A stretch of DNA of 43,812 bases, taken from contig JBOZIK010000001.1 in the NCBI GenBank assembly GCA_051453625.1, positions 346,883 through 390,694 on the forward strand, in the 5' to 3' direction. Below the pieces are notes generated by a model. It saw only the letters and a program-made list of their open reading frames with translations, was not told the DNA's origin and ran no database searches. Source of the stretch: Welwitschia mirabilis (Eukaryota). Shown here piece by piece: positions 520 through 36,676 of the stretch. A program made the position numbers and the translations under genes. Positions within the stretch are counted from its first letter, which is position 1. The number at the start of each line of letters is the position of its first letter.

Positions 520-3500
520 ACAATTCTTAGTTCATGATGAAGTCTTAATAATTTATTAAATTTTAGGGATTTTATAATAATATCAGCTAGTAATTTATTA
601 GTGCTAATAAAGTTCATAGAAATTTTGTCTTTTTCTACTTAATCTACAAGGAAATGGTGTCTTAGTCTAATATGTTTCATTTAATAATGTTGAACAAATT
701 TATTTAAGATATTAATTACACTAGTATTATCACAAAGATTAGAACTATTTAAATTTAACTCCAAAGTCTTTGAGAATTTCCTTCATTCAAAGAAGATGGG
801 TACAACAACTTCTTACTACTATATATTCTTCTTTTTCTGTGGAAAGAGAGATAGATTTTTGGTTGTTACTTGACCATTCTACCAAGCATGATCCTGAAAG
901 AAAACAATTTCCACTGGTGCTTATAACCTGCCCACTCTGTATCACTAAAACTTATGAGCTTAGATAAAGTTTTTATAGGATATTATATCCTATAATCACT
1001 TGTGCCTTTTAGATATCTTATAATTCTTTTGATAGCTTGGAGGTGTGATTCCTTTGGTTGCATTTGATATCTTGGATACACAGCAACACTGAATATTATG
1101 TTAGGTCTACTTTTAGCTAAATATGATACACTTCCTATCATGCTTCTATAAAGTTTTTAGTCCACAAATTTTTCATGATCATTAAGACTGACTTTATAAG
1201 AAGTTAACATAGGTGTATCAGTTGATTTTGAATTTTATAGTTCAAATTATTTTATCAAGTTCCTTGAGTATTTAGATTGAGAGATGAAAATCTCATGTTT
1301 TATTTATTTAATTTGTAGACCAAGAAACATCTGAACTTCACCTAACATATTCATTTCAAATTATGTGGTTACAATACTAGCAAATTTTTTTAAGAGATAT
1401 TTTTTTGAGGCTACAAAAATTATGTCGTCAACATAGATTTAAATAATAATAAAGTCTTTTTTAATATTTTTGACAAATCAGTTTTATCCACAACTCCACA
1501 AGTATAACTATTTTCTTCAATAAATGTCGTTAGTTTTTCATACTAAGCCCTTGGAGCTTGTTTTAAACCATATAAGCCTTTTAATTCTATAGACATAGTT
1601 TGATTAGTGTGAATCTATGAAACCTTGTGGTTGTTCCACATAAACTTCTTCATTAAGAATTCCATTTAAAAAGGCACTTTTCACATCCATTTAAAAAACT
1701 TTAATGTTCTTAAAAGCTGCATAGGACAAAAACATTCTAATATTGCCCAGTCTTACCAGTAGAGCAAATGTGTCTCCTACATCTATTCCTTTAATTTGGT
1801 TGTGTCCTTGGGTCACTAACCTTACCTTTTTTTAATCACATTATTATGTTCCTTACACTTGTTCCTAAAGATTCATTTTGTTCCAATTACATTTCAATCT
1901 TTTGATCTTTTTACAATTTTCCAAACATCATTTCTTTTGAATTATTAAAGTTCATCTTGCATAGTTATCATCCATTCTTCAAAGGATTCAGCCTCTTCAA
2001 ACTTTTTGGATTTAATTTGAGAGACATAATAAATGTGGGCACAAACAATTTCAAGAGAGTCTCTAGTCTAGATATTTAAGCTTACATATCGAATAATAGA
2101 CTCAAGTGGGTGATATGTTAGCTCTTTAAACTTTTTGGAAGTAACATCTTGAGATGGCTCTTCTTCCTTTTCAGTTGTTACTTCTTTTACTATGGAGGTA
2201 CTTGGATTTAGATTTTCTTCATCATTTGAAGGAATAAGTCTTGTACTAAAGTCATCTATTTGAACATTTATAGATTCTTCCACTGTTAGACTTCATTTAT
2301 TGAAAACCTAGTAGGCTCTACTTCTAGTTAAATATCCTAAAACGATTACTTCATCAGCTTTGGGCTTAAATTTATTCAAACATTTCACTCAAATTTATTT
2401 AAACATTTTCTATTTTTTAAGATAAATAATTAATTTTTAAAAACCTTAAATATGAAACATTTGGTTTTCTTCCTTTCTAAAGTTCATAGGGGTTTTTTCC
2501 ATACCTAGTCTTAGATAGACTTTGTTAATAATATAGCATGTAGTACTTATTGCTTCCGCTCAAAATTTTTTAGAAACTTCCTTATCATTTAGCATTATTC
2601 TTCTTATTTCTTGAAAGACTTAGTTTTTCCTCTCTACAATTCCATTTTTTGAAGGAGTCTTTAGGGCTGAAAACTAATGTTCTATACCATTGTCTATATA
2701 ATACTTCTCAAGAAGATGATTTTAGAATTCTCCTTTATGATCACTTTTAACTCTTTTAATAGTGTATCCTTTCTTATTTTGAATTTTGTTACATATTTTA
2801 ACATAACTTTTAGAGGTTTCAACTTTGTTTCCTAAGAAAGCAATCTAAGTAAATCTAGAGTAGTCATCCACCATAGTAAAAAAATATCATTTTCTTCCTA
2901 GACATTTAGTTTGGAAGGGACCCACCAAGTTCATGTAAATGAGTTCAAGTGGCATTGTTGAGGAGACTAATTTTTTACTTTTATGAGAAGTCTTGGCTTA
3001 TTTTCCTTTTTAACAAGCATCACATAGCCAATGTTTTTCAATGGTAATCTTAGGGATTTCTTTCACAGTCTTCCTTTTAATGATGATTTTGAGATGGTAA
3101 TAGTTTACATGTTCTAATTATTAGTGCCATAATTATTCTTGATTTATATGATAAAAATAATAAGCAAATAAAGACTAATTAATACTATAAACATTATCTA
3201 TTTTATTTGCTTTAACAATAACATCATTTATTTTACCATTTTTAACTTCACATTTCTTACTATCAAAGATGACTTTGTAACTTATATTACAAATTTGACT
3301 AATACTTAGCAAATTATGTTTAAGATTATTTGCATATAAAACTTCATTAATTTTAGGAATTTTACCTTCACTGATGCTTTCAATGCCTTTAATTTTTGAT
3401 TTTCTATTATCATCAAATGTTACTTCTCCTTCATCAAAGTCATCCAGATGTAAGAATCTTAATTTGTCACCTATCATGTGATAAGAACAACCACTATCTA

Positions 3501-5807
3501 TGTACCAGAAGGTTCCATTTAATACTTTAAAAGCTATTTAGATCAATAAACTTTTTAAATTGTTATCCCTTATCCACTTAGTCCATTTGGACTATTATGG
3601 TACACATCCCCTTGGGACAAATTTAAATGAAAAATTACTAATCGAGTTTGTAAAGAGCATTATCTTCCTAGCATTAAAAAATAATTTTGAATGAGCTATC
3701 TTTCCACAAAACTGATAAGTAATTTTTAACATATAGTTATTTGCCATATTACTTGATTGCATGGTTTTTTAGAGATGAAGCTCACACCTTTCTTGTTATG
3801 AACTAGTCTTTATACCCTAAGCATCTATTCCAATTTACTTGAACTATTTGAAACTTTATTTACAAAGTAAGATAAGATTTTTACCTCTTGATTTGGCTTG
3901 GAGCTTTTTGTTNNNNNNNNNNNNNNNNNNNNNNNNNNNNNNNNNNNNNNNNNNNNNNNNNNNNNNNNNNNNNNNNNNNNNNNNNNNNNNNNNNNNNNNN
4001 NNNNNNNNNNNNNNNNNNNNNNNNNNNNNNNNNNNNNNNNNNNNNNNNNNNNNNNNNNNNNNNNNNNNNNNNNNNNNNNNNNNNNNNNNNNNNNNNNNNN
4101 NNNNNNNNNNNNNNNNNNNNNNNNNNNNNNNNNNNNNNNNNNNNNNNNNNNNNNNNNNNNNNNNNNNNNNNNNNNNNNNNNNNNNNNNNNNNNNNNNNNN
4201 NNNNNNNNNNNNNNNNNNNNNNNNNNNNNNNNNNNNNNNNNNNNNNNNNNNNNNNNNNNNNNNNNNNNNNNNNNNNNNNNNNNNNNNNNNNNNNNNNNNN
4301 NNNNNNNNNNNNNNNNNNNNNNNNNNNNNNNNNNNNNNNNNNNNNNNNNNNNNNNNNNNNNNNNNNNNNNNNNNNNNNNNNNNNNNNNNNNNNNNNNNNN
4401 NNNNNNNNNNNNNNNNNNNNNNNNNNNNNNNNNNNNNNNNNNNNNNNNNNNNNNNNNNNNNNNNNNNNNNNNNNNNNNNNNNNNNNNNNNNNNNNNNNNN
4501 NNNNNNNNNNNNNNNNNNNNNNNNNNNNNNNNNNNNNNNNNNNNNNNNNNNNNNNNNNNNNNNNNNNNNNNNNNNNNNNNNNNNNNNNNNNNNNNNNNNN
4601 NNNNNNNNNNNNNNNNNNNNCTCATTGATCCATTTTGGAACTTTTTCACATTCTAAGTAGAGTCCTTGACAAGTATTTTTTTAGCTCCTTTTGATCTTAT
4701 TTAATAAGATCTAAGTCATCTAGTTCTATTGAGCAAGGCGTGTTCTTCACAGAAGGGACTACTACCATGAAGGAAAGTGTTTTGTCTCCATCTAACTCTT
4801 GATTTGAGCTATTATCTTCTTCTTCGTCTACATTATCCCAAGTAATAATGAAGGATAATGTTTTGGGCTTCCTCTGATCTCTTCTATTATTTGGACATTT
4901 GTTTGTAATATGTCCATATTCCTTACATGTATAACATTAGATTTGCTTTCTTTTTTTTGGATCTCTTCCTAGTTTGGAATGACTCCTATTTGGTTCCTTA
5001 CTTGCTTCACAATCTCTCTTTCTTTTGTATAAGAAAATTTTGAATCTTCTTACCAAAAGAGCAATCTTATCTTTATCAAGGTCTTCATCTGATTTTTCAA
5101 ATATGGACTCTTCTTGCATACTTTTGAATGCAAGAATTTTTTTTAAATTTTTGGAAAACTTTAATTTATAAGTTTGAATATTACCTTATAGTTTCTCTAG
5201 TGCCTTTCAATTGATGTTCTTGCTTTCCTCAATGGCTGTGAACTTTGGCTCAAAGCAATTTAACAAAGATCTTAGAAACTTTTTGTATAACTTTTCCTTG
5301 GTCTATTTTCTTACTTAGACTTATCATAGAATTTACTATGCCTATTAGTTTAGCAAATAACTCTTGTAGAGTTTGTTCTTCTTCCGTGAAAATATCTTTA
5401 AACTTAGAGATGAACATCTATAGTTTTGCCTATTTTATAGTGAATGTTTTTTTGTAAGTGATTCCAACTATATCCCAAGCTTCCTTAACATGTTCACAGT
5501 TCAGAATCCTCTTGAATTCATCTGCGCAAACTACACAAAGAATAGCATTAAGAGCAAAGTCATCTAAGGTATCCTTGGCTTTGTCAATAGGGGTTTATTA
5601 GTCTTGAGATTTCTCAACCAGCATGATGGTTTTATTATTATCAATTTTGGATAATGTGGGCATGACATATCCATTATAGATTATCTCTTCTATGTCTACA
5701 TCTAAGGATCTAAGGAAGGTTCTGATTCAGGCCTTCCAGTAAGCATAGTTAGTCCCATCAAACATGTATGATCTTCCAGTAGATAGGCCATCAGAAACAT
5801 TACTCAT
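520..5807 (-). pseudogene. Copia gag-pol polyprotein remnant (many stops and frameshifts, N gap at 3913-4620)
   Basis: ATG at 5807; knuckle CYTCKEYGHITNKCP (~4890-4935); protease WYIDSGCSYHMIGDK (~3465-3510); integrase VDDYSRFT (~2850-2875); RT motifs MDVKSAFLNG (~1660-1690), LYGLKQAPRA (~1550-1577), IYVDDIIF (~1415-1438); RNaseH KHIRLRHHFL (~650-680). Confidence 0.92.
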
Positions 5808-7056: not shown

Positions 7057-7993
7057 AATAGCTTAATGTATTGCAAATAGGAATAACTTTACAACAAAGT
7101 AAGAAAAAAGCAGGAAGAACTCCTCAGCATTCCTCGGAGACTAGCTTAGAAATCCATCACAAGTTGATGCTCTAAGGTACTATAATTATCTAAGTCAAAG
7201 ATAACATGATAAAGGTTAGAAGGTTCTTTTATAGAAAGAAATGGTAAAGAANNNNNNNNNNNNNNNNNNNNNNNNNNNNNNNNNNNNNNNNNNNNNNNNN
7301 NNNNNNNNNNNNNNNNNNNNNNNNNNNNNNNNNNNNNNNNNNNNNNNNNNNAGGTACTATAATTATCTAAGTCAAAGATAACATGATAAAGGTTAGAAGG
7401 TCCTTTTATAGAAAGAAATGGTAAAGAAAGATGGTTATAAGTCCTTATCTTATAGCATTAGGTAGGCAATTATAAATTATAACATTAGGTAAGGCGATTT
7501 GTCTTCTTTCTCATTTAGTGAAGGTGCTTATGACAACGCTAAAGCTTGACTCCAGTGTACTATAGATACTATCAACTTCTATTTACACCATGCATCTCTA
7601 TTGTTGTCCTACTGAGTAATGCCATATGTCACTTTGTGAATCCTCATCATCATTTCCACATGTCATCAAGAATGTAATTGATTTTTAAGGTGGAACTCAA
7701 TCAATCCCATAACTACATTTTATCCAATTTTTCATGAGAAGCCAAGAATATAAGTTTAAAGTCAGTCTACATAGAAAGGTTGGTGATGTCGATGGTGCTA
7801 GACGACATGAAATTAAGGCATGTCCTTCAATTGAGCATAAGTTTCCTAAAAATGTCATGAAAAAATAATTAAGTGCATAATTAATATGAAAATCAATAGA
7901 AGACATGTTTTTATGGTAAAATCAATTATATTAGTGTTTATGTTTAATTTATCATTTAAACTTAATTGTAATGTCAATTTTTACATGTTAACA
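7057..7993 (-). repeat. 3' LTR (partial, interrupted by the copia insertion) of the Athila-like element
   Basis: Minus-strand start TGTTAACATGTAAAAATTGACATTAC follows GGCACTAGCAAAAAGTCAGTTAGGATGTG. Colinear with ~13785-14565, e.g. shared CATCAAGAATG(T/C)AATTGATTTTT and GCATAAGTTTCCT(A/G)AAAATGTCATG. Confidence 0.8.
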
Positions 7994-9742
7994 CACATCC
8001 TAACTGACTTTTTGCTAGTGCCTTAATAAAAAAAATGAGAATGACATAGTTAATCATGGAAAAATCATTAAAGTTAAATATGCTCAAGCATAAAAAAAAT
8101 GAAACTTCGAAAATTTTCACGATAAATTTTATGTGATTAAGACATCAAAGTAAAAAATTAAGGAAAAATTGAATGAAAATCGAGATGTCATACCACTAAC
8201 CAGAACTGAACTTTATCGTCAAAATTTATAACTTTTAAACCTTTTGAGAACATAAGCCTTAGAATGAATTGCAAAGAGTTATTTTGTTGAAAACTATGTA
8301 ACTAAGCTAAGAACTAGCTATAGTGAAAAGCTAAGGAAAAATTATCTACAGTGAAATAATGCTAAGTTGGAGGTCAGTCAATAAAAACAGTTTATGCCTT
8401 AGGAATTATTTCTTATGGAAATGATCACAAAGCAAAGTGGAGTGAAATGGAGTAAAATGGAGATGATAAATGGACTTAAACCACAAATCGATGAATAAAT
8501 GAGTAAATGTTCCTAAGTTAATAGCCCTTTATTATATTTTTATATTTTTATTAGATCACAATATCAACTAAGTGTTAACTAAGTAACTTATATGAATTTA
8601 AGAAATCAATGCAAATCCTAAGTATGAAAAGTTAAGAGACAATGGTTCATATAAAGCCTCTAATTCCCACGTTTTTAATTCCTTTACTTTTCATTTATAC
8701 CATTGCATATGTTCTTAGCATTATGCCTTTAACCGTGTTAAGCATCTAGTGTTACAATGTTTTCTACCAACAGAGTTAAGACATATTTTATTTACAGAAA
8801 TCAATGCTACATTGCCAAGTGTGTTTATAGTCCCAATGCAGTTGAAAATGTCACAATTAGATTATTAGAGCTACATTGTCAACACATGTCCAAAACTTCA
8901 ATGCAATTAACTAAACCCAACTAGCTTATTAATGTTATTTGCTTTTGAAGAAGAGATATATTATTTTCTTTTATTCATCTTCTCATAGTTATTTTTTATG
9001 CACATTACAGGGTCATTGGCTCATTAGACTAATCAAGATAAATCTTGTCCCCATCAAAATCTTGAGACTTAAGGAGTACATAAAAAGGTAAATCCTACCT
9101 TTTCAACCAAGTTTACTAAAACTAAATCTAAGTGAATGCATTCTTAATCAATGTACTCTAAATAGCATACTTTTCCTTAAAAACCCATAAGCAAACTTGA
9201 TCTTAATTATTGCTAAAGTAATAGCGAGATCACTTATTATTGATTTTTATTTAACATTCTTTAACTTAGACCAGTAATCCTTAGAATCTTATGGATTGAT
9301 GGTTTGTAGAGATGATTTATGGAATTTATGAAGTGATTTAAAAATGAATTTAATAAATGATAAGGTTTGAAAGGGTCATGGGATAAGTGACAATGATGTG
9401 ATGGGGTGCTAATGAGAAAACCATCCTTAGGAAAAGAATAGTTTTTAGGATGAATTAGGGTAGAAGACTCAAAAAAATTATGGCTATCATTTTCAGAGTC
9501 AGAGAAGTAATAATCAAAAGATAGTGAAGAATGGAAAATGTTTGGCTTGAGAGGAGAATATTTGAAATCACAAGTTTCATTTAGTTAATTAGCTTCTTCA
9601 GGATTTCTTGATAACTCTATTGCATTAAAAGTATTTAAGTTTNNNNNNNNNNNNNNNNNNNNNNNNNNNNNNNNNNNNNNNNNNNNNNNNNNNNNNNNNN
9701 NNNNNNNNNNNNNNNNNNNNNNNNNNNNNNNNNNNNNNNNNN

Positions 9743-12149: not shown

Positions 12150-12395
12150 TGTAACCCTATAATCAATAAAGTATTGTACNNNNNNNNNNNNNNNNNNNNN
12201 NNNNNNNNNNNNNNNNNNNNNNNNNNNNNNNNNNNNNNNNNNNNNNNNNNNNNNNNNNNNNNNNNNNNNNNNNNNNNNNGTTAATAGAGTCTAAATAGGA
12301 TTTGATCCTAGGTTCCGTTGTGCATGATAGTTAATAACTATATATATTAAAAAAATATTATGGTTAATTAGGGTAATTAAGAGTAGGGTGTTACA
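12150..12395 (+). mobile_element. Possible nested Tekay/Del-type LTR termini collapsed around an N gap
   Basis: Starts TGTAACCCT at 12150 and ends AGGGTGTTACA at 12395 (near-inverted, typical chromovirus LTR termini), with a 100-N gap between. No clean target-site duplication. Confidence 0.35.
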
Positions 12396-12989
12396 GGTGC
12401 ATTCTTTCATGATCATTGAAGGAATCCATGTTGTTGTGAATTAGTCTTCTAGTTTTGTCACAGGTTTAAGTCATGCAAAAATAAGTTTAAAAGATTACAT
12501 ATAGGTTTCAGATAGTTTTCAAATAAAATTTCATAGGTCCTACAAGTCGATTGGACTTCAGGGGCTGCACAAAACATTCTATGATATATTGAGGAGGTTC
12601 TAGATTAAAAGGATGGTAACGCTAGTGAGAAAAGGTATCAATGTTAGTCAAGTTTCAATTATAGCCTAGCAAAAATGAGGTGGTTTGCTCAGTCGTTTCA
12701 GATTATTTTATGTATTGAGATCACAAATAAATTAAACTAAGACAAAACACATGAATAAAATTAATCCCAACATATCAAAATTGTGGAAGATTTTTAAAGT
12801 TCTAGGCACATAAAAAAAATGCAGAAACAAAAGTAGAAAAATAAAAAAAGACACAATAGGAAAATAAAAGCATGCAATGCAATGTAAAGTTTAATTAAAA
12901 GTTTTTGAGGTTTCTAAGTTTTTTAAACCCTAAAAGTAGCCTACAAATAAATACTATACCTGCACAAAATAAGTTAGAAAATAAACTTT

Positions 12990-13125
12990 AAAATAAGCTA
13001 GACTAGTTTGGGTAACACTGGAAGGATTAGTACCAATCACTAGAAAGAAAACTGAACACACAAAATAAAATAAGCTAGACTAGTTTGGGTATCACTAGAA
13101 AAGAAACTAGTATCAACCACTAGAA
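12990..13125. repeat. Short direct repeats in the Athila leader region
   Basis: AAAATAAGCTAGACTAGTTTGGGTA(A/T)CACT(G/A)GAA occurs twice (~12990 and ~13067), with additional CACTAGAAA units. Confidence 0.7.
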
Positions 13126-13211
13126 AAGTAAAAACTATGTATAAAAACTTGTAAAAAGAAACATAGTACTCCTCTAAGCTAATTTAAAGTTGAGTTTACA
13201 CTTAGTTAAGA

Positions 13212-14565
13212 TGATAAGCCAAGGGCATACTAATAAAATTACCTTGGCTCATTCTACTACATTAGTACAATGAATCAGATTTAAAGCTAAGTTTACACTT
13301 AGCTATCATTCTTCCTCAAGTATAATATTGGTTTGGGTACAGAATTACACTAACTAAAATTTAATAAATTTATAGGTTTTAAGAAAAGGAATAAGAAAAA
13401 GAGATGGTTCTTAGAATTAGGTTTGAACTTCATCTTGAGAAAGAAGGAAAGCAAACTAGCTCAAAGGTATTATCAGTTCATCCTTAAGCAATCTTTTAAT
13501 CTAATGTTATTCAATCATCTTCTTGCAAAATACTTAAAACCATAAAGTTCTTTTAGTTTAAGTCATAAGGCATAATCTCATTCACCATCTGATATATGAT
13601 GACTCTAATGATTCTTTAGTCTTAAAATAATAATAGAAAGGAAGGACTCCTAAAGTGCTTAAGATCTATGAAATTAAAAGACTTAGGCTAAGTTATTAAA
13701 AGAAATTCACATAAATAAAATAAACTTAATGATTAAAGTAGTTATCTAAGCATTCCAATTTACTCATGAATTAAAATCAAAGAAAAATAATTTAATGTAT
13801 AGCAAAAAAAAAAAAAAAAAAACTTTACAGCAGAGAAAGAAATAATCAAAAAGAAAACCTCAACAATCCTCAAAGAGTAGCTTACTTCCCCAAAGAATCA
13901 CTTAGAAAGCCATCACAAGTCAATGCTCCAAGATTCTAAAATTCTCCAAGGCAAAGATAATACAATGAAGGGTTTTAAGGCCATTTTACAGGGAGAAATA
14001 GGAGAGAGAAGGCTTGTAACATTAGATGGAAGGTTATAGATTATAACATTAGGTAGGATGATTTGTCTTCTTTTCCATTTGGTGAAAATGCCTATGCAAT
14101 GCCAACACTTGGCTCTAAGGTGCTACAGCTACTGTCAACCACTCTTTATGTCATGTGTCTCCACCATCATCCTGCTTATCCATACCATATGTCATGTTGT
14201 AAATCCTTGTCATCATCGCCATGTGTCATCAAGAATGCAATTGATTTTTGATGCAGAACTTAATCAAGCGCATAATTGCATTTTATCCAATTTTTCATGA
14301 TAAGCAGGAACATGAGTTTGAAGGTAGTCTACACAAAAAGGCCAACATGACGGCACTAACGTTTTGACTCTGATAATTGTGAGATTAAGGAATGTCCTTC
14401 AATTAAGCATAAGTTTCCTGAAAATGTCATGGAAAAATAGTTAAATGTATANNNNNNNNNNGTCGAAAGCATGTTTTTATGGTAAAATTAGTTATATTAA
14501 TATCTTCTATTAAGGTTAATTAATCATTTAAACTTGATCGTAATGTCAATTTTTATATGTTAACG
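13212..14565 (-). repeat. 5' LTR of the Athila-like element (left boundary approximate)
   Basis: Homologous to 7057-7993. The left part (13240-13330) is the reverse complement of the LTR 3' regions at ~15230-15300 and ~26740-26800. The minus-strand end is probably ...GGCTTATCA at 13212. Confidence 0.65.
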
Positions 14566-15491
14566 GCTGTCATAAGAATCGTTTCCAAGTATAAAGGAAG
14601 ACAAACCTTTCTATCTAAATATTATCATTATGTAACTGTGGCAGTGATGGGTGGTTATAAGTCTTTCTCCCTATAAAAGGGACTGAAACCCTGAGGATTG
14701 TTAAGAAGTTCTTCTATCATCTTTCTTCCATTGTTGTAAAAGTGCTTTTATTTTCGTAATACATAAGTTGTTTGCCTTTTATTTCAAATCATAAGTAATT
14801 TTGTATTTGGAATGTTTAGGAAGCAACCTAACTATTAAAGATTTATGATATTTGAGTGAGCTCTTGTAATACTTAATCTAAGCCTTTTAACTTTACAGAT
14901 TTTAAGTGCTTGGGTCCTTACTTTCTATTATTCTTTAAGGCTTAGAAGATTAAGTGGTAACTGAGTTTACCATTACTCATGTGGTGAATGAGATTATGTC
15001 ATCATGATTTAAGCCAAAATAGTTTATGGTTTTAAGTGTGTTGTAGGAAGGCATTGGTAACATTAGAGTGAAGGATTGCTTGAGAGTGAATCAATGATAC
15101 ATTAGAGCTAGCTTGCTTCCCTCTTTCTTAGGTTAAAGTTCAAAATAAAACTTTAAAATTACCTCTTGTCTTCTTTTCTTTTCTTGAAATTTGTTCTTGC
15201 ATTAAGTTTAAGTTAGTGCAATTTTAAACCAATACCCATGTTATCCCTGAGAAAGAATGATAACTAAGTGCAAACTTAGTTTTAAATCCAAAGATTGTAA
15301 AATAATGAACACACATATTTGTCACAAAGTTTATAATTTTGATGTCTTAATTTCATAAAATTGGTCATAACTTTTTTAAAGTTTTATCACCTTTTACACT
15401 TGTACACTTTGACTCAAATAATTTTTCCATACTTAATCATTTCATTATTAACTTTTTGCTAAAGGTCTAGTAAAGGTTTAGTTAGGGGGTA
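14566..15491 (+). mobile_element. Older plus-strand LTR 3' half (14566-~15313) and short internal/PPT remnant of the same Athila-like family
   Basis: Begins mid-LTR (GCTGTCATAAG...GAAGACAAA) and has CCTATAAAAGGG. Similar to 25976-26839 and to the reverse complement of 13240-14080. 15330-15491 resembles the reverse complement of ~7995-8150 and ends in PPT-like GTTAGGGGGTA. Confidence 0.65.
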
Positions 15492-15998
15492 TGTTAACAT
15501 GTAAAAATTAGCATTCCAATCAAGTTAATGGACTAATTTATCTTAATGGAAGACATTAATATAATCGATTTTATCATAGAAACATGTCTATTATTATTTT
15601 GTTATAATAACTATGAACTTATCATTTCCCCATGATATTTTCAAGGTAATTATCACACTTTGAGGAACATTTCAAAACATGATCAACATCTAGCTTAAAA
15701 CATCAATGCCACTATACATGTCACTTGGTGTCATCGGTCCTTTTGTGCAAAACACATCAATTCTCATGTTCTTAACTTGTCATGTTTTTGTCAAATGCAG
15801 TTATTGGATTAATAAAATTTTTCTGTGTAAATAACTTGCATTTTTTACGGCATGTGGTAATGATGATAATGATGCATAGGAGTGACATGTGGCATTACTA
15901 AGTAGGATGACAGTGGAAACGCATGGTAGCAATAGTGGTTAGCAGAAGCAGCAACATCCACAAGCCAAGTATTGGCCTCATCTTAATGGTCTCTACCT
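15492..15998 (+). repeat. Athila-family LTR, 5' part (interrupted by the CACTA element)
   Basis: Starts TGTTAACATGTAAAAATTAGCATT right after the PPT-like tract and matches the reverse complement of ~7500-7993. Confidence 0.75.
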
Positions 15999-16014
15999 CA
16001 CGACTAGAGATATA

Positions 16015-16205
16015 GGCTTTTAAGAAATTTCGAAAATGCCTTAAAAGGCCTTAAAAAATGTCTTAAAAGCTTTTAAGGCATTTCTTTACAAAATGCCCTA
16101 AAAGGAGTCTCTTAAGGCATTTTTATACAAACAACTTTAAAAGTGGCTTTTAAAAATGCCTTAAAAAGTGCTTTTAAGGTGTTTCTATAAAAGCACCTTA
16201 AAAAT
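16015..16205. repeat. CACTA left subterminal repeat array
   Basis: Repeated AAATG(C/T)CTTAAAA and inverted TTTTAAGGCATTT units in head-to-head and tail-to-tail arrangement. Decayed equivalents at ~25845-25955. Confidence 0.8.
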
Positions 16206-17561
16206 GGCTCTTCTTGAAAGGTATAACTTGGATTTAAAAAAAAGTTCCATTAGGAATGTGCCTTTTGCATAGATTTATCCTAATGAAGCACTTAAGGATG
16301 ACATTCTAAGAAGCTTAGTACAACATTAGACCTTTTAATATGCATAGAATAAAAATAATGGCATTAGAAAAGATTCTGAGAGAAAGAAGCGAAATATACA
16401 AAGATATAATAAAAAATAGGTGTTGTGTTTAAAATTGGCCATAGAAATTTGTTCTAGGTGAGATAGGTATGCTCTTATCATAAGCTATATATATTCATTT
16501 TAATGCTCTTTGCAAATACTATATGGTGTAGTATTCCTTAATATTCTATAATATGCGCTATTCTTCCAATTTTCAAAATTTTACTCTCATCTGCAATGAA
16601 GAAGAACCAATTTCAATATAATGTATAGTTATTATTAGTTTTAAGATTCCTATCATCTAATTTGAAATGAAAACTCAAGAAACGGAATGAGATAGTTTTG
16701 GGATATCTTCTATATCCAAACTACTTATAAATGAGTATTGTAATATGCTACTTTAAGATGTATTTGTCACCATTGCTATATTTGTTACTGAAATAAACCA
16801 AATAAAATGAAATAAGATCTAAGGGTGAGGATAAACAATACAATGAAATTTGAATCTCGTAGAAAGTTTCCTTTTAAGCAACAGACATATTTACATTCTG
16901 TAACGTGATCTTAAGAAAACAAAAATAACTTGCTTCATTTTAAGTATGTGTTAGCTTGATATCCTAGTTTCTGGAAATTACAAAAATGCTCTATTAAAAG
17001 ATCAAATACAAAGTAAGACAATCTCCAGTTACAGCAAAAGAAAAGAAATACATAGAAAGTATCAACCTTCCTAATTTCCAAAAACATCATAGCTCTTTTC
17101 CCATGAGAGATAGCATAGAAAGGTATGCAATTACTCACTAATTAATAAAATAACTTCAGGATTCTTAATAATTTAGGAATATATTGTTTTAGTGGTCTAA
17201 TTCAACCAGACAGGGTAGTCTAGGCATGCTTTACTATGATTAAGATTCCTTCGGTCTAAGAAGGATCTTACCCAACCTAGTATGTGAATAAGGAATTTTG
17301 TTTGAGAATACTAGCATGACTAATTAATGAGAAGGATCCTATGATATCCTAATATCTTTTTTAAAACTTAAAATCCTAGCCATTTNNNNNNNNNNNNNNN
17401 NNNNNNNNNNNNNNNNNNNNNNNNNNNNNNNNNNNNNNNNNNNNNNNNNNNNNNNNNNNNNNNNNNNNNNNNNNNNNNNNNNNNNTTTAAAACTTAAAAT
17501 CCTAGCCATTTAGATCTCATAACTTGTTGTTCAACACAAAATAGGACATCGCCTAAATCAC

Positions 17562-18136
17562 CTGATCAAATGATGGCCAAGGTCTTCCTCTACCAAAATT
17601 GAACAATGTCCAAGTAGCATTTCTCAACATTGACAGTTTTGCATGTTCATTAAGTTATGCAAGCAAAGAAAAAAGAGCATTATGACTAAGAACCAGGTCT
17701 TTGCACTTTGGAGAATCACTAGCAACATTGCTCAATGCCCAAATAACCTAAAAAATATTGTTAACTCATAAATTAATTTTAGAAACATTAAGAATACAAG
17801 ATCTTGGCATCGCAACATCTAAACTAAAATATTACCTATTCATAAACATCATCACTAGAAGAACCTAACAATGGTATGGAAATTGGAACGACCCCATGAT
17901 CGATCATGACTTTTTTATGAACTAACATTTCTGAATCTATATTTGTTAAGGCTGATGCTATTACAAACTAAAATAATAGTTAAACAAAAAAAAAGAAATA
18001 ATAGCAAATGAAATAGTTCTAGCCTAACATTCATGACAAATCATAGAACACTTTCACCTGAACATTGGAAAGATCACTTTTGGTAAGAAACTGAACAAAA
18101 TGTAAGAGATCACTTCTGGAAGATGCCTCTCTCTTT
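17562..18136 (-). pseudogene. Importin-alpha (karyopherin alpha) gene fragment, three exons with introns
   Basis: Exon ~18136-18058 (ER..PEVIS / HFVQFLTKSDLSNVQ, frameshifted); exon 17967-17836 (132 nt, FVIASALTNIDSEMLVHKKVMIDHGVVPISIPLLGSSSDDVYE*); exon 17747-17562 (186 nt, [61 protein letters not shown]). These match plant importin-alpha ARM repeats ([50 protein letters not shown]). GT-AG introns of 90 and 88 nt. Confidence 0.93.
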
Positions 18137-21100
18137 CCATGATAACCATTAAAAAAAGAGAAAAATAGAAACAAAAAAGCCTTAACTCGGGAGTATGACT
18201 GTTGTTTATAGAGTTTAACAGTTTACCACCGCACAGATAGAACAGAAACAATCACACGCGGTATCTTTTGGGGCATTTTTTAGCCTATGAGTGGTCATAA
18301 ATGAAGAGAGGGGAGATGTGGGAGCACCAAGTGTGTGGGGATTTTATGGAGCTTCAAGATCTGAGTCTTTTCGCACATTAATTGACCGTGGGTCACTCTT
18401 CTCTCATCCCCGTTTTATATCCATCATTGATGCTTCTTTCAGTTGTGCTGTCATGAATTTATAGCAGAAGTTCCTTCTGAACACAGATTTTAGCTCACTC
18501 AGAATTTTTACAGTTAAAGGGTGGTGAACGATCAGATGGGCATGGTAATGCGGGAAAGTGCACCGTTTTACGGACACACCAGACACGTCAATGAAGAAAA
18601 GCAGCATCAGAATCTGACCTGGAAAACTTCAGCATTGTTTATGTTCTCGGGAGTTGCAGGGAAGCTAGTTTTGGTCAGATCAGCTTCCATGATTCTACTT
18701 TTCTTCTGGTAGCAATTGGTTACCTCTCAGAACAACGATAACGCCACTCTCAGCAATAGTAGAAGAACTGGAAGGAGCTCAAAAAGGAGTTAAGTTTTTA
18801 TCGAGATGACAAAGTGCAGGGACAAAGTGCTGGTGACAATGCCCTATGACTTTCTGCACTGAAGAGACCATCAAGATGTAAGAGATCATATGTTCTTAAA
18901 TAGCTAGAGAATGCTTCACACCTTCTCAAGTCAATGAAAAGCTTCGGTTTCTCATCTGAGAATTAAACATATGCCATAGCTCTGTGGCTCTACATAAGAA
19001 ATTTCAATTCGTTTTCATAAGAGCTTACCAATCATTATAAGTACCAAGTAATCTCCTGTTAAACACCACATTCAAGGAGTTTAAGCCATAAGAAGAGACT
19101 ACATTCATAATCTACAAGGGGTGTAGCATAATAAACTAGCATAATGGTCATACTAGGATGACCTTTCTCTAAAGTGGAATCTCACCTTGGTTTGGGCTAT
19201 GTCTTCATTCATCTATGGAATGGTTTTGCAATATCTATTGTGAATCGGATTCAAAATTTGTAGGGGTGTAGCCTTCCTCTTGGAATGACTATGACTGTGA
19301 ACATCTCCAAACTGGAACTATTATTGCCACACTCATCTCATCCTCTCGTGCCCTGAATGTGCTTGAAGAATTACCAGTGGAATCGGATTCACGTTGCATC
19401 TCAATGTGGTTGCTTACTACCATCTCAAGGTCATTCATTGAAGCTCTTGTCCTTGTCATTGGCCAAATGGGTTATTTTGAGATGTAATGCATAGATGCCA
19501 CATTAAGAAAGTTTGTGCCTTGTATTTGAAGCATTCTAGAAAGAATTTTAAGTTCTAGAAGACTGATCAAATCATATATAGATAGGCCCATTTTCTCTAT
19601 TTCTTAGTTGAATCATAGTTTAAAGGCAACCGCTTACAATTTGACATGCAATACCAAGGATACACCATTTGTTGAAGACTATTATTTCTTTCTTGATCTA
19701 AAATGGGTGGAACAGAAAATACTAGTACCTAGTTACTTAATAGCAGAGACTGAATTTTTCAGCTTAATAAGGCATGAAGTAACTTTTACTCTAGTTCTAA
19801 ACTAGGTGCTAGCCATTACGAACATCTCGTAGAATCCATTTTTGTCAATTGTCTTTCCTTATAAGATTCTAAGTTTTTGACATTATGCAAGGCTAAATAA
19901 GATTTGTCGAATGGAAGTCATTCCCTTCTATTAGATTTTGTAAGTCTGTCACTTCTTTAATTAGCAGGCATTTTACTCGATCGATTATAGGTTTTTAGAA
20001 TATCAACAAAATTAATACCGAATTATATGACTACATAGAAACTATAATCCTTTTTGGACATGTTCTACTGAAGAAATTTATCATAGGGGATGTTAAATGG
20101 TTCGACTGAAGTAGACAAGTTACAACAAAAATTCTTTGCAAAGTAAACTCTTTCCTATAGAATGCCATTTTTATTTCTATTTAGGGATTGGATTAGTTAT
20201 TACTCTTAGACTAGAGATTTCTCTAGTTACAGATGTCATTATTTATGGGAAATATCACCCCTTATGTGAGGCTCCATCATCTTAAATGAGTATTTCAAAG
20301 GCTTGGCTAAAGTAGTTTTTTAGTTAGAACAGATGCTAAAAATTCTCTAAAGTAGAAACCTTTGAAATGTTTTTATGTAAATTCTTATCTGGGTAGAAAT
20401 TATAATAGGAATAATAGAAAAATATCCAAAACATTACATTGAGAGTGCTACAGAGTTTACAAAAAGTTTAAAACCTAAAAATAAAGGTACAAAGAGAAAT
20501 GCCTTCCCTAGTAAAGAATTCAATGATGATAAACTCCAACAAGATTGAACTACTAGGACTGATAGCCATTACTTGTCTGAACCATAGTTGAAGAAGAAGT
20601 AGATATTCCATTGAAGAATGACATATGGGAAGGGCCTCTTAGTGAAGCATCAAATGGAAATATAGAGGGGGATAATGCAACAGAGTTTCACCAATGTAAT
20701 CCCTTTCATGAAAATTATGAGCAAGGTACTCATCCAAATAAAAAATGATAAAATGAAGAATCAGATGATTCTTATGCTAGAAAGAGTTTTCCAAAACAAT
20801 CTCTTAAACACGGGCCTAGAGATGAATATTTTAATAAAACACACAACAGATATCACAACCAAAGTCAAGGATGACATTTTAACTAGTGGTATTAGTTTAG
20901 AAAATGGGGTCATCTTGGAATACTAACTTTAACAAGAACAAGGTTGTAACTTAAAGCAATGGGAAAATGACTTGTATGAGTGATAGGTCCTAGGATTAAG
21001 ATTATTTATGCAAATTTACTTAGTAAATCTAGATGAAAATGTGGAATAATGTGTGCTATTGCAACCTTAATATCACTGAACTTATCATAATATATTTTGT

Positions 21101-22722
21101 TTAAGGTGAGGGCTTGAAGGACCTAATTTACCTTAAAGTATCAAGAATATTTAATTTATTGTTCAAGTCATTGAAAATGACTTTCTTGTAGGAACTAATG
21201 CTTTTATAAGACTTTTTAAGATCATTTCTTCGAATAATAAAGTGCTTTATCAATTCATCTTAGCTAAATATATTCATAAAATACAAGATTTGAGGAGTTG
21301 GTAACATAAGAACAGTAGTAAACTAATGCTGGATAGCACTTATTTCTAAGGATTATTATATTCTAATACCTACCCAACAATAGATTTAGGAGCAAAATAA
21401 GATAAATATTACTTTTTCAAGTAAATATTAGTTCACAATAATTTTTAGCATGTAAACAAAGTAAAACAGCATTCTAACAGATAACTTCTCAGTTCTGTAA
21501 TATATAACAAATGCTAAAATGAAATCACAATACAAACATATTTTTTTTAGAAATATAATGCTTATACAATGATAAATAAATTAGCTACAAATAGTGTTTC
21601 CTTTGCAAGTCATAATTGAAATGAAGAAGAGTACTCCAATATTGATCCCAAGGCTTTCTATCATTCCTAGATGTTATGCAAAGTGTGCCAAAAAGATTTC
21701 ATAATGGTAACTCTAGGTCATATTTATACTAATCTTTAGGTAATTAGAGAGAGACAACAGTTGTACAAGAATGAATAACAGCTCCTCCTATATTAAGGGA
21801 GTAAATTACCACATGTTATGCATGAATTTAGAGCAGTTAGAACATTACCTCCATTTTCCCTGTGGCACTTGATTATAATGAGATCACTTTCCTTTCTTCT
21901 CATCTTTTTGTTTTTCATTAATAGTTGTTATGACACTTGTCATTATGCTCCATGGGTTTATAAACCTGCAAAACAATAATAGTATTTTCTTTAATTACTA
22001 AGTTATGCACTATAATCAATATGTAATCCTAAATTATAATTCTAAAGTAATGCCTAAATATGAAAGATAATTGCTATATCTACGTAAGCTAAATAGCAAT
22101 TCTATGTTTCTAACAGCTGACTATGCATAAAATCTATTATTCAAAATGTAAATTTTTGCCTCATCAATGAAGAACCCTCTCCAACAAAACTAAAGAAACA
22201 AGAAACTTACCAAGGAATGATCCCAAAATGGAAATTATTGAAAAAAGTGGAGATTTGCAAGGTAGAGACAATCAAGATAAGTACACAAACAACCAAGGTT
22301 ACTCTTACAATTTATCAAAGAAATGAAAACATTACAAGCAAGTTAGTGAAAATAGCATATATCTAACATCAGGTGAAGGACGATCACAAAGAAAGAAAAA
22401 GCAAATGTTAAACTCAAGTTCTGGGCAATTACCAAGGAGAGGCAAATTGAGATCTTATAGTTCTAACTCAAAAGCTAAATAGTATTCTCATCATACGAGG
22501 AGCATAAGCAGGCTTTACCATGAGGTGTAGCTACTGATTTCCATTTAGAATATGAAGGCCCTTTTAAAAAACAAAAAAAAAAAAAAGCAAAAAAAAAAAC
22601 CCAACTATTTGTCAACAGTAAAATCTTTATTAGTTTTGTTATCCCCTCCTTTCCATGGAAAAGTATCTATAGCCTAGTTGGAGCTCGAAAGATATGAATA
22701 GCATTAAATAAGTTAGGTCATA

Positions 22723-22890
22723 GTTTTTTCCCCTAAAGGTAATGATAAGTAGGTAATTTGTGTCACACAAATGCCCAATGCTACCTGGGCCTATGAAAAC
22801 TTTCCATTTTTTATGTTCCCTGTCAATGCGAGGGTTTGAACTCTAGACCTCTGGGTCCATGTGTCTGTGACCTTACCACTCTAGTAAGCT
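22723..22890 (-). mobile_element. tRNA-derived SINE (~170 bp) inside the CACTA element
   Basis: Minus strand has A-box-like CTTACTAGAGTGGTAAGG, B-box-like GAGTTCAAACC ~33 nt downstream, a short A tail, and flanking direct repeat GTCATA (22717-22722 and 22891-22896). Confidence 0.6.
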
Positions 22891-24058
22891 GTCATAAACA
22901 TCATCATTTAGTATTATAATCCCTTTACCGTTCTTCTCTTCCCTAAATAAGCCATGACAAATATTTCTCATTGAAATTTTTTTTACTACTCCTTTTATCA
23001 GCCTTCTCAATATATTTGATACCATTGTTAAACCATAAAATCATAAATTATCTAAAAACCTACCTTCTATGTTATAGAGAACCTCCCTTCCCACTTTGCA
23101 CAACATGAAACGCATTTCAATAAAGGATGAAAAGTATTCAAAATTGTATCTTATTTGTAGACTTATTTATTTATTTATTTATTTATTGAAGGAAATTTTT
23201 TCTTNNNNNNNNNNNNNNNNNNNNNNNNNNNNNNNNNNNNNNNNNNNNNNNNNNNNNNNNNNNNNNNNNNNNNNNNNNNNNNNNNNNNNNNNNNNNNNNN
23301 NNNNNNNNNNNNNNNNNNNNNNNNNNNNNNNNNNNNNNNNNNNNNNNNNNNNNNNNNNNNNNNNNNNNNNNNNNNNNNNNNNNNNNNNNNNNNNNNNNNN
23401 NNNNNNNNNNNNNNNNNNNNNNNNNNNNNNNNNNNNNNNNNNNNNNNNNNNNNNNNNNNNNNNNNNNNNNNNNNNNNNNNNNNNNNNNNNNNNNNNNNNN
23501 NNNNNNNNNNNNNNNNNNNNNNNNNNNNNNNNNNNNNNNNNNNNNNNNNNNNNNNNNNNNNNNNNNNNNNNNNNNNNNNNNNNNNNNNNNNNNNNNNNNN
23601 NNNNNNNNNNNNNNNNNNNNNNNNNNNNNNNNNNNNNNNNNNNNNNNNNNNNNNNNNNNNNNNNNNNNNNNNNNNNNNNNNNNNNNNNNNNNNNNNNNNN
23701 NNNNNNNNNNNNNNNNNNNNNNNNNNNNNNNNNNNNNNNNNNNNNNNNNNNNNNNNNNNNNNNNNNNNNNNNNNNNNNNNNNNNNNNNNNNNNNNNNNNN
23801 NNNNNNNNNNNNNNNNNNNNNNNNNNNNNNNNNNNNNNNNNNNNNNNNNNNNNNNNNNNNNNNNNNNNNNNNNNNNNNNNNNNNNNNNNNNNNNNNNNNN
23901 NNNNNNNNNNNNNNNNNNNNNNNNNNNNNNNNNNNNNNNNNNNNNNNNNNNNNNNNNNNNNTTGTAGACTTATTTATTTATTTATTTATTTATTGAAGGA
24001 AATTTTTTCTTAATATAGCTTCCATTCCTATTACACTAACATCTGAGAAGATTCAACC

Positions 24059-26839: not shown

Positions 26840-27275
26840 TACGAAAATAAGATTACGGGTTAATTAAATTTCCATTAATATTAATTACTATACCCACAAA
26901 AAAATCATTCTCTTTATTATTATGCTTTAAGGGAAAATTTCCCCCCAAATAAATGGGAGTATGAAGGATGAAAAGGAGTATATTAGAAGTGGAAGAAGGA
27001 GAATGAAAATAAAAGGGTAACATCCAAAGTACAGAACACTTTTTTTTAATCCCTTAAAGGGAATTCTTTCCCTATTCATAGTGAAAATCATGTCTATCTT
27101 GATATAAGCTATGCTTGCTTACTTAGTAATGACCAATCAGCAAGAGCAATGTATTCAAAGCTTGATCTAATATTCTTCACTTAGGGATCTCAAATTTTCA
27201 ATATCTAGGATTAGGGCTTGGGTGGGCATAGCAAAAAAAGGAGGAGTTGGAGGACATGCGTTTTTTTTTTTTTTT

Positions 27276-27324
27276 TGTGTGTGTGCGTGTGGGTGTGTGT
27301 GTGTGTGTGTGTGTGTGGGTGTGT

Positions 27325-27367
<43 letters not shown>
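27276..27367. repeat. (GT)n microsatellite preceded by poly-T
   Basis: Imperfect GT dinucleotide run ending in an N gap. Confidence 0.95.
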
Positions 27368-32913: not shown

Positions 32914-33390
32914 TATTTCATTTACATGTTGTTTAGTTACAAGTTAATTTGCTTGATTAGTAATAGAGATCTTCCTTATCCCATGGATTTTCTTTGCCTT
33001 AAAGGGATTTATCATGCAAATTACCATGTTTTGTGGCTCTTCTGGGTTTGCCTTTTTGTCATTTTATGCTATGTTCTTTTTGTTGTTGTTTCAGAAAATG
33101 ATCCTATCGTGCTTTGATGCTTCTTAAGTCAAGTCATTGGGTACCCTTCTATTATTTCATTTACATGTTTTTTTAGTAACAAGCTAATTTGGTTGATTGG
33201 TAATAGAAATCTTCATTCTCCCATGGATTTTCTTTGCCTTAAAGGGCTTTATCATGTAAATTAGCATGTTTTGTGGCTCTTCTTGGTTGGCCTTTTTGTC
33301 ATTTTATGCTTTGTTCTTTTTGTTGTTATTGCAGAAAATGATCCTATCATGCTTTGATGCTTCTTAAGTCAAGTTATTGGGTACCCTTCC
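32914..33390. repeat. Tandem duplication, 2 x ~240 bp, intronic
   Basis: 32914-33150 and 33153-33390 align throughout (TATTTCATTTACATG...GGGTACCCTTC) with scattered substitutions, roughly 90% identity by eye. Confidence 0.92.
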
Positions 33391-33464: not shown

Positions 33465-34707
33465 TGTTGTGACGCTAAATTGTATGTATTTGATGGGGTA
33501 TTTTGAGTACTTTTGCAGGACATTTAAATAGGTTTAGATGGAATTCTAAGGATTATGGAGATTTGATGGGATAATCACGGAAACATGCAATTCTTGATGT
33601 ATTTAGAGGCATTCTAGGCAGATTCTGACACTTAACATTTTAATGAGAAGACCAATGATGCAGGAGGCCGACTGCTCTTAGCGGGAAAGCTTAGGAAGCC
33701 TATTGTTCCCTAGGTCATCTAGACAATAGTCAAGATGACAGTGATGCTTACATGGACCAAGGCTGCAGGGCTGGAAGTTGATCAATCATCTCTTATTGCG
33801 GGGTATCGTCCCTAGAGTTGTCTGAATGATAGGTAGGACGATAACTATTTTATTTAAACAAAACGAATTATCTTTGTAATGGGGTCATGCACCCCATGTG
33901 GGCTGTTAGGTTTCAGCTCCAACTTCTAGGGTCTTGCTTCCAGAATCTTCAATGTAAAGCTATAAATACTCCCTTGTCCTCACTCTCAAAACCATTCTTT
34001 GTACCAGAAAGTCCTGTGATGGGATATTGAAGGATAGGAGGTCCATCCATAGCTACAAAGAGAAGTCTTCCTTAGTGTTGGGCTGTGTATCCTCCAATAA
34101 GGTGCTGCTGCTTTGTAAGTGGATGCTTGATTCATTCAAGATTAATACAAAGACTGCTTTACTTCTCTTATGTGCATCTCCTTTATTGTTCATGTTGGTT
34201 ATGATTTTGTGATAATTTCATAGTTGATCTAGATTATAAAGGCAACCTTTGTTAAGGTTGACATTATTGGTTTAGATCTTGCATTTCATTTCATATTGCA
34301 TTCCCATAGTTGCATTTATCTATATTTTATTTGATGTATCTAATAGCTTATGTTAATTAGGCTTAAATGATAGTTTTCCTAAGTGATCTAAGTTATAAGA
34401 GCTGATCTTGGTGACAGAAAGATTAGTAGTCAAATAGATTCATTATTTGCGTTTCATCTATAAGCATTGCATTATCATTCATCTTGCATCATATTCTTGC
34501 ATTGTTTTCTATTTTTATTTATTTACAGGAAAAAAGACTAAAAGTACTTTGGCAAAATCAATTCTCTAACTTCTAGCTTAGTACTTTCAACAGATTATGA
34601 CATTCGGGTTAAATTCTGTCTATATTAGTGTGTGTTTTTTTGCAAGCATTTGTGATTGATAGGAAGTGCCTAAGGACTTAAAGATTGTATAATTTCACAC
34701 GACAACA
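33465..34707 (+). repeat. 5' LTR (1243 bp)
   Basis: TGTTGTGACG...GACAACA, colinear with 41360-42610. I count 18 mismatches in the first 136 bp. TATA-like CTATAAATA at ~33960. Confidence 0.92.
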
Positions 34708-35320: not shown

Positions 35321-36676
35321 TTGATGAATAGTGATAAAAGGACCCTTAGAGAAATTCTTTCTAAAAGGAGGAAAAACTTGAAGATTTCTGAGGAACATGG
35401 TAAAAAAACACTTCGAGAAATTTTTGCAGAAAAAGGGAGGACAACACCAAATGTTGTTGAGATTAGGAATTCAGCTCCTTCCTCTTTTCAACCCCCTAAT
35501 TTTTCCTACTTTTTTAAGACTTCATATAGAAATGACAACAAAGATTTTCAAATTTCAGGGATTCCACCTCATTTAGAGAAGCATTGTATAATCGTTTTAG
35601 CAAATTCAGTCCATGTCCCATTAATTACTATGAAGAAGAAGAGCCATATCTCATGAATTACTATGAAAAAGACAATGACTCAATAAAAGAAATGAGGGAA
35701 GGGATGAAGAAGATGCGAGAAAATTTAGAAAATCAAAATAAGAAACTAGAAAATCTGATTAGGATTTTCAACAAACAATGTTACAAAATCAAGGTTTGTT
35801 TTACAACACAAAATCGTATTACATCCTACCTTGAGAAAAATGAGAAAGAACTTACGAACAAGTGACAACGATTCTTGCTTTCAAATAGAAGATGAGATTT
35901 TGGATCAAACTTCAATATCCCACTCATTAGGAGATGTCCAAAAGGAAGACAACAATGACTCAACTCAATTTTTCAACAATAAGGATCGGGATGATTATTT
36001 ATTGGATGATGATATTAAAACACTAGATTATATCATTGAAATCCATTTACTGCTAGAAAATATAGATGGAATAGAAGAATCATTTCATAAGGAATCTGAA
36101 AATTTTTCCATCTATGATGAAGGTGATACGCACATTTCTCTTAATGACCTTTTTGATGAATCTAACAACTTGGAGAATGAGAGCAATACTCAACAAGAAA
36201 AGGAAGGTATAGTTAAAAACAATGACAAGGAAAGTGGAAAAGCAATCCAACAAAGTAATGATGAAGACAATAATGAAGAAAAGGAATATAGTAAAGAACC
36301 TGTAAAGATACAATCAAACTTCAGAGAGGATAGACTTGTTCATTCTACCCATGTTTCTCCATCCCTTCCACCTATGCTTTCATGTAAGACTCTAAATCAC
36401 ATCCTTTCTTCTACTTCTACTTCCATATTACCTTGTGATCTTATAATAGTAATCTTTCTCCATTTTTTCCTTTTGAACCTTCATGTAATTCTCAAAGCCA
36501 CATCGTTTTTTTTGACTTTAATGAAGCCTAGGATTTTGAAGAGTCTATTCTTAATATCTCTCCATCTTTTCCTTTTAAAACTCCATGTGATACTCAAAGT
36601 AACATCCTTCCCTTTTCTACCAAGTCCACTTTACCTTGTGATTTTAATGATTACATTTTTTAAAAGTATGACTTGA
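35321..36676 (+). pseudogene. Frameshifted ORF in the gag position of the LTR element (basic N-terminus, coiled-coil-like part, acidic region)
   Basis: Three overlapping ORFs (35321-35656, 35584-35865, 35831-36676) appear to form one broken frame with repeated (R/K)TLREI. No canonical capsid or knuckle motif seen. Confidence 0.45.

Follow-up and report, generated by a model that had tools for sequence, protein, structure and literature searches.

The minus strand of the window (the whole stretch of DNA analyzed here, 43,812 nt) carries, at 18099–17562, three consecutive exon pieces of an importin-α gene, corresponding to about residues 120–239 of flax importin alpha-2 (P0002, 501 aa). This copy is no functional importin-α: it covers only about a quarter of the protein, contains two stops and lacks the IBB domain. 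Non-processed fragmentary pseudogenes are very common in plants, and this is one of them: an old, dead copy with no function today, made at the DNA level and lying within a mosaic of gene scraps. Our account of how it arose, perhaps as filler during repair, is tentative.

Results

An importin-α fragment that retains its introns

The original prediction had assigned 17562–18136 to importin-α, and this origin was borne out. Searching the whole 43.8-kb window by tblastn with two flax importin-α proteins gave joined hits with E values of 7e-34 (P0001) and 1e-33 (P0002), and a PDB search with exon A alone returned residues 138–178 of rice importin alpha-1a (E ~1e-8). The two predicted exon blocks of 132 and 186 nt with GT-AG borders were recovered on the minus strand, each with one stop (Table 1). 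In exon A, 27/43 aligned residues are identical to P0002 residues 134–176, and the last codon is TAG (17838–17836) at a position that is Gln in P0002. Exon B is identical to P0002 residues 179–239 at 47 of 61 aligned residues, keeps the Trp/Asn pairs, and has TAA (17657–17655), again in place of a Gln of P0002, as codon 31. GT/AG dinucleotides are intact at all five importin splice borders checked. The fragment spans roughly ARM repeats 1–4; a Pfam search of stop-to-stop ORFs gave only sub-threshold Arm hits, for four ORFs of the importin region.

Table 1. Coordinates of the importin-α and PMT20-like scraps and of the features next to them (positions in the window).
Feature	Position	Strand	Details
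Scaffold gap, 100 N	17386..17485	.	same 26 nt (100%) on both sides; 76 nt downstream of exon B
Third importin intron, start	17486..17561	-	GT at 17561-17560; runs into N gap; no importin exon after it
Importin-α exon B	17562..17747	-	186 nt, 62 codons; AG before, GT after
Retained importin intron 2	17748..17835	-	88 nt, GT..AG, 23% G+C
Importin-α exon A	17836..17967	-	132 nt, 44 codons; AG before, GT after
Retained importin intron 1	17968..18057	-	90 nt, GT..AG, 24% G+C
Upstream importin-α exon, 3' end	18058..18099	-	P0002 ~residues 120-133; ends in phase 0, then GT (18057-18056)
Candidate frameshifted continuation of upstream exon	18100..18149	-	'MERERHLPEVI' vs 'SIERSPPIEEVI'; colinear
G+C-richer spacer piece	18416..18717	.	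has an expressed homologue of higher G+C content at another genomic site; partly matching RNA reads, loose ends
PMT20-like exon, residues 499-524	~18843-18921	-	24/26 identical
Retained PMT intron	18922..19028	-	107 nt, GT..AG
PMT20-like exon piece, residues 468-498	~19028-19120	-	tblastn, joint E ~1e-16 with residues 499-524

The upstream exon had been described as damaged, and indeed no more than its last 42 nt could be recognized. Here 18099–18058 reads 'FVQFLTKSDLSNVQ' against 'FVEFLVREDFPQLQ' with a local score of 35 (shuffle mean 22.2, sd 3.8), a score reached by 4/300 shuffles. The continuation in another frame at 18149–18108 is at chance level when taken alone (137/300 shuffles reach its score), its sole support being its position; from this colinear position, a continuation of the exon to 18149 is plausible, and 18136 is only an approximate 5' limit of the fragment.

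The 90-nt and 88-nt introns are kept, in line with the predicted copying at the DNA level instead of through a retrocopy. Retained introns exclude retroposition and leave three DNA-level routes; the structure of a poly(A)-tailed intronless retrocopy is absent, the introns being present. The original prediction had also set a fragment against a decayed whole-gene duplicate with further colinear exons on both sides. No further importin-α exon was found on either side: tblastn of the whole window with P0001 and P0002 gave only residues ~119–242, so that the IBB domain and a complete ARM array are absent, and sensitive small-database searches at a low threshold returned nothing significant for residues 1–125 in 18090–23204 or for residues 237–501 in 12280–17570. 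The copy thus resembles functional plant importin-α (rice importin alpha-1a, PDB 4B8J; flax P0002) in ARM residues ~120–239 and in the Trp/Asn pairs of exon B, but differs from it in having two stops, no IBB domain and nothing from residue 240 onward.

A PMT20-like scrap and a G+C-richer spacer

A PMT20-like fragment, missed in the original prediction, adjoins the importin-α piece, ~700 bp upstream on the same strand. The intron between its two exon pieces interrupts a Trp codon, exactly where an intron lies in a real PMT20-like gene on a metagenome contig (L004); this scrap, too, has thus retained an intron of its parent. TAG at 19114–19112 replaces Trp in the exon piece of residues 468–498, and the donor GT expected after the exon of residues 499–524 reads GG. 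One of the 14 ORFs in 18.2–19.6 kb, 18962–18798(-), matches PF03141, the plant PMT/QUA2-type methyltransferase family, with an E value of 1.3e-6.

Extension of the PMT exon piece to ~19230 did not rise above shuffles. Neither the final PMT exon nor any exon encoding residues 1–467 was detected, either by small-database tblastn within 5 kb or by tblastn of the whole window. By-eye alignments were dropped for the last exon, with scores reached by 106/300, 33/300 and 71/300 shuffles, and for the upstream exons, with scores reached by 74/300, 45/300 and 6/300. Since the last PMT exon is missing, the importin and PMT scraps are both internal pieces. With the PMT fragment included, two or more genes have contributed scraps to the mosaic at this locus. 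No contig among those listed spans 18553–18860, so that the PMT scrap is placed next to the importin piece by the assembly alone.

The spacer piece at 18416–18717 had no protein or RNA family match in Pfam, HMMER and Rfam searches. Rfam gave 0 matches at gathering score in the whole window; therefore, the G+C-richer 18.2–19.5 kb is not a relic of rRNA or tRNA. Nothing in plasmids matched 18137–20500 by blastn. For the 74-aa ORF at 18407–18628(-), a transposase identity was rejected (weak DDE_1 hit, E 0.11), and its one HMMER hit among 1.84 billion proteins was a tandem-repeat artefact protein.

On two plant contigs from metagenomes (L013 and L015), a second PMT-like match (~19478–19994) lies ~7 kb downstream of the first, which suggests tandem PMT paralogues in the plant of these contigs.

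Decay of the scraps

Nucleotide changes were inferred by parsimony, from each differing codon to the nearest codon for the conserved reference residue; the resulting counts are rough, with a reference from another species. For the two importin exons this gave 39 changes, with GC-to-AT transitions (24) far outnumbering AT-to-GC transitions (3). With both stops at Gln positions, this bears out the decay of Gln codons to stops by C-to-T changes that had been proposed. Over all four exons (importin and PMT together), 56 changes were inferred, including 32.3 GC-to-AT and 4 AT-to-GC transitions. At the loose read end at 18523, 7/8 differences are A or T in the window and G or C in the expressed homologue. 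The exons have 33–38% G+C and 0–2 CpG each. The GC-to-AT bias is strong, as would be expected from deamination in silent, methylated DNA.

Codons are changed at 32/106 positions of exons A and B. Exon A is identical at 41/41 residues between rice importin alpha-1a and flax P0002, whereas the window copy differs from P0002 by 16 changes. This conservation between rice and flax, set against the changes in the window, indicates that constraint has been relaxed. We estimate ~0.16 (importin) and ~0.13 (PMT) non-synonymous changes per site. Taken with general plant mutation rates, the importin value, for a segment without differences between rice and flax, would put the age of the copy, very roughly, at 10–30 million years.

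Copying as DNA and the search for transposon ends

In the history that we tentatively favor, an ectopic site received a genomic copy of an internal importin-α piece (one exon end, two whole exon-like blocks and two introns). There it lies beside the third piece at 18416–18717 and an internal part of a PMT20-like gene, unlinked in origin, that shares its orientation. Gene movement by gap patching is said to have been described in a classic study of cereals. The copying here may have taken place on templates during repair of a chromosome break, through synthesis-dependent strand annealing or as end-joining 'filler' DNA. Such repair filler would stitch together short pieces of several loci, in single copy and without transposon ends, and the patch would then have drifted neutrally, mostly by GC-to-AT transitions, presumably under methylation. 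In a five-species survey, most plant pseudogenes were reported to be fragmentary, and the dispersed ones were fitted to an NHEJ-SDSA filler model (PMC7935947).

Possible, yet less probable, is an origin as cargo of an old, by now unrecognizable non-autonomous DNA transposon, either Helitron-like or of the Pack type with TIRs, that took up internal pieces of several genes, made a single insertion here and then decayed along with its cargo. Within ~1.7 kb there are at least two scraps of unlinked genes, both with introns and both in the same orientation; a pair of fragments oriented alike is the classic look of Helitron cargo. Unlinked intron-bearing gene pieces side by side are textbook transduplication (PMC13317346, PMC1947982, 10.1101/777037). 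Also in favor of such cargo, the 15-nt motif found in the high-copy element (16011–16205) recurs as one lone, inverted copy at 18265–18279, 126 nt from the importin piece.

The search for ends argues against it. No inverted repeat of at least 40 nt brackets the block, and short TIR+TSD candidates are no more common (13) than in 20 shuffled controls (10–23). Helitrons have a 5' TC and a 3' hairpin with CTRR behind it, and insert between A and T. A hairpin+CTRR scan gave no convincing end, only 6–7 bp stems with a mismatch before CTRR, none of them enclosing the block. The lone motif was rejected as the far end of an element starting at 16011, because the region around it aligns to the element end in the motif only. 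Decayed ends could escape the scan, and decay of ~15%, as in the exons, could erase transposon ends; an old carrier would also look single-copy at 95% identity.

Copy number bears on the same question. Four public runs were compared with 16000–20500, namely DNA contigs of X2 (study P1) and X5 (study P2) and the RNA-seq runs X14 and X17. One contig of 793 nt from X2 (17650–18442) and one of 821 nt from X5 (17622–18442), each with one differing letter, run unbranched from exon B to 18442. Their depth over the importin piece is ~7, like that of the flanks, whereas depth over 16000–16150 sums to ~2900. Contig depth is not equal to copy number and unbranched contigs exclude near-identical copies only; read within these limits, the data fit a real, single-copy locus. 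The unbranched contigs of flank-like depth are a further point against transposon cargo. The earlier wording of a 'captured' fragment, in the sense of transposon cargo, was therefore not upheld: we found no bracketing TIR, TSD or Helitron end, and the piece is not a near-identical multi-copy sequence.

The cluster at 16011–16205 itself contains seven copies, on both strands, of the 15-nt motif (AAAATGCCTTAAAAG) in nested palindromes, with a summed contig depth of ~2900 against ~7 in the flanks. It therefore belongs to a family, MITE-like or satellite-like, of very high copy number. At 18265, 25943 and 29580, the motif occurs singly with two mismatches.

Neighboring genes and the duplicate reading

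The third DNA-level route, which we consider improbable, is that the block descends from a whole-genome or segmental duplicate that was originally complete, with PMT20-like and importin-α genes as neighbors, and that deletions later whittled both genes down. The two scraps are decayed to a similar degree (~0.16 vs ~0.13 non-synonymous changes per site), share one orientation and have introns of normal size, and the old LTR retrotransposons nearby show that the region was reshuffled, all of which would suit such a relic. It would, however, need at least four separate deletions that spared introns of 88–107 nt, and no other exon of either gene lies within 5 kb on each side or in the whole window. 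Importin-α was found at 0/62 PMT20-like loci of other plants (648 kb), of which 25/62 had at least 3 kb after the stop; this neighbor test is weak, as the loci are redundant and the species of the window is not among them.

Expression and assembly

The stretch is present in public runs of two organism labels from four studies. No RNA run was among the runs matched to it in the public sequencing-run search, and 16000–18415 drew no read from RNA-seq runs X14 and X17, in about a quarter of each run. A few RNA reads fall on 18416–19170, as partial matches only (~50 nt for the PMT scrap). In our reading, the loose read ends at 18843 and 19108 encode PMT sequence and hence come from spliced mRNA of an expressed PMT homologue elsewhere and not from the locus in the window. 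While the PMT scrap was thus matched by reads from its expressed homologue, no read of importin-α mRNA matched the importin piece at 95% or more. Long perfect matches to the parent, such as would feed trans-acting small RNAs, are therefore unlikely.

These data bear on the suggestion in the original prediction that the fragment is a source of siRNAs, which was not supported: the importin piece is without RNA reads in the two RNA-seq runs, and no importin-α mRNA read matches it at 95% or more. The predicted non-coding state, on the other hand, stands, given the two in-frame stops and the damaged, truncated upstream exon.

Readings that give the locus a present role, or tie it to an element of a new kind, fare poorly. 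It is a long shot that the PMT scrap, the spacer with its expressed homologue and the importin scrap together are cargo of an undescribed low-copy transduplicating element, or else make up a chimeric non-coding locus that, in an unsampled tissue, targets importin-α and PMT genes through small RNAs. Very unlikely, too, is a working element, be it exons of a chimeric gene or of a long non-coding RNA, or a source of small RNAs by which the parent importin-α gene would be regulated. The intact splice dinucleotides at 5/5 borders are in its favor; against it are the two in-frame stops and the damaged first exon, the silence of the importin piece in the two RNA-seq runs, and the lack of importin-α mRNA reads at 95% or more next to ~50-nt partial PMT matches, which makes long perfect matches to the parent improbable. 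In addition, no protein of at least 77 aa in a collection of 5.8 billion carries exon A beyond 63% identity.

An assembly artefact, whether through chimeric scaffolding or through misjoining of a read from the true importin-α gene, is hardly credible. The scaffold is in draft state, and duplicated sequence flanks at least three of its 10 N gaps. Against an artefact, independent X2 and X5 contigs of two organism labels reproduce 17650/17622–18442 with one differing letter each, studies P3 and P4 share ~0.3 of the sequence words in the stretch searched, and the stops and GC-to-AT bias are not expected from a misassembled live gene.

Discussion

Relation to known systems

The copy resembles the non-processed fragmentary pseudogenes of plants surveyed in PMC7935947 in its partial coverage of the parent, kept introns, stops and frameshift, intergenic TE-rich setting and lack of any sign of expression. 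Nothing essential differs from that description; the window copy shares its patch with a second, unrelated gene scrap. With the arrays of Helitron, Pack-MULE and CACTA (Tgm-Express) elements (PMC1947982, PMC13317346), it has in common internal pieces of unlinked genes, introns and a single orientation. Unlike those arrays, it showed no TIR, TSD or hairpin+CTRR end, nor extra copies among the contigs of two runs. The word 'importin' was absent from the gene-capture literature among the top-ranked matches.

The filler DNA of the NHEJ/SDSA model, cited in PMC7935947, is the likeness on which our preferred reading draws: a short, ectopic, single-copy patch without transposon ends, possibly from several templates. 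Filler DNA is defined by microhomology at its junctions and by an empty site in a relative.

Consequences for annotation

The importin and PMT scraps deserve masking or a pseudogene label, as they would otherwise enter counts of importin-α or ARM-repeat paralogues as false members. Beyond annotation, the locus is of little importance. It is a tidy example of plant mosaics of DNA-copied gene scraps that decay by GC-to-AT transitions, and, taken together with the full genome, it could add one case to the question of break repair or transposons as the source of such mosaics.

Genomic setting of the window

The window is A+T-rich, mostly 25–35% G+C, and is a draft sequence with ten N gaps. The gap at 17386–17485 is probably an unmerged contig overlap that hides nothing. 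The same sequence also stands on both sides of the gaps at 7252–7351 (77 nt, 99%) and 23205–23961 (50 nt, 100%), which are probably unmerged overlaps of the same kind, likewise hiding nothing.

A decayed copia-type LTR retrotransposon lies at ~1694–5594 (-), with RVT_2, Pol_BBD (Pol beta-barrel), zf-CCHC (zinc knuckle) and gag in short ORFs and a 708-N gap inside. Pfam searches of the other ORFs gave nothing credible for 115 in 12.3–23.2 kb and only copia-type domains (~1.7–5.6 kb) for 149 in the rest of the window. Long direct repeats with 75–89% identity form two pairs, ~7130–8000 with 13886–14564 (~6.57 kb apart) and 33467–34687 with 41362–42590 (~7.9 kb), which are likely LTR pairs of old retrotransposons. 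Inside the second presumed LTR element (33.4–42.6 kb), 35759–36673 (+) is an open frame of 305 codons, acidic and of low complexity, with no Pfam match. A tandem duplication of 221 nt occupies 32929–33389, and a long (GT)n microsatellite at 27260–27367 runs into a 32-N gap.
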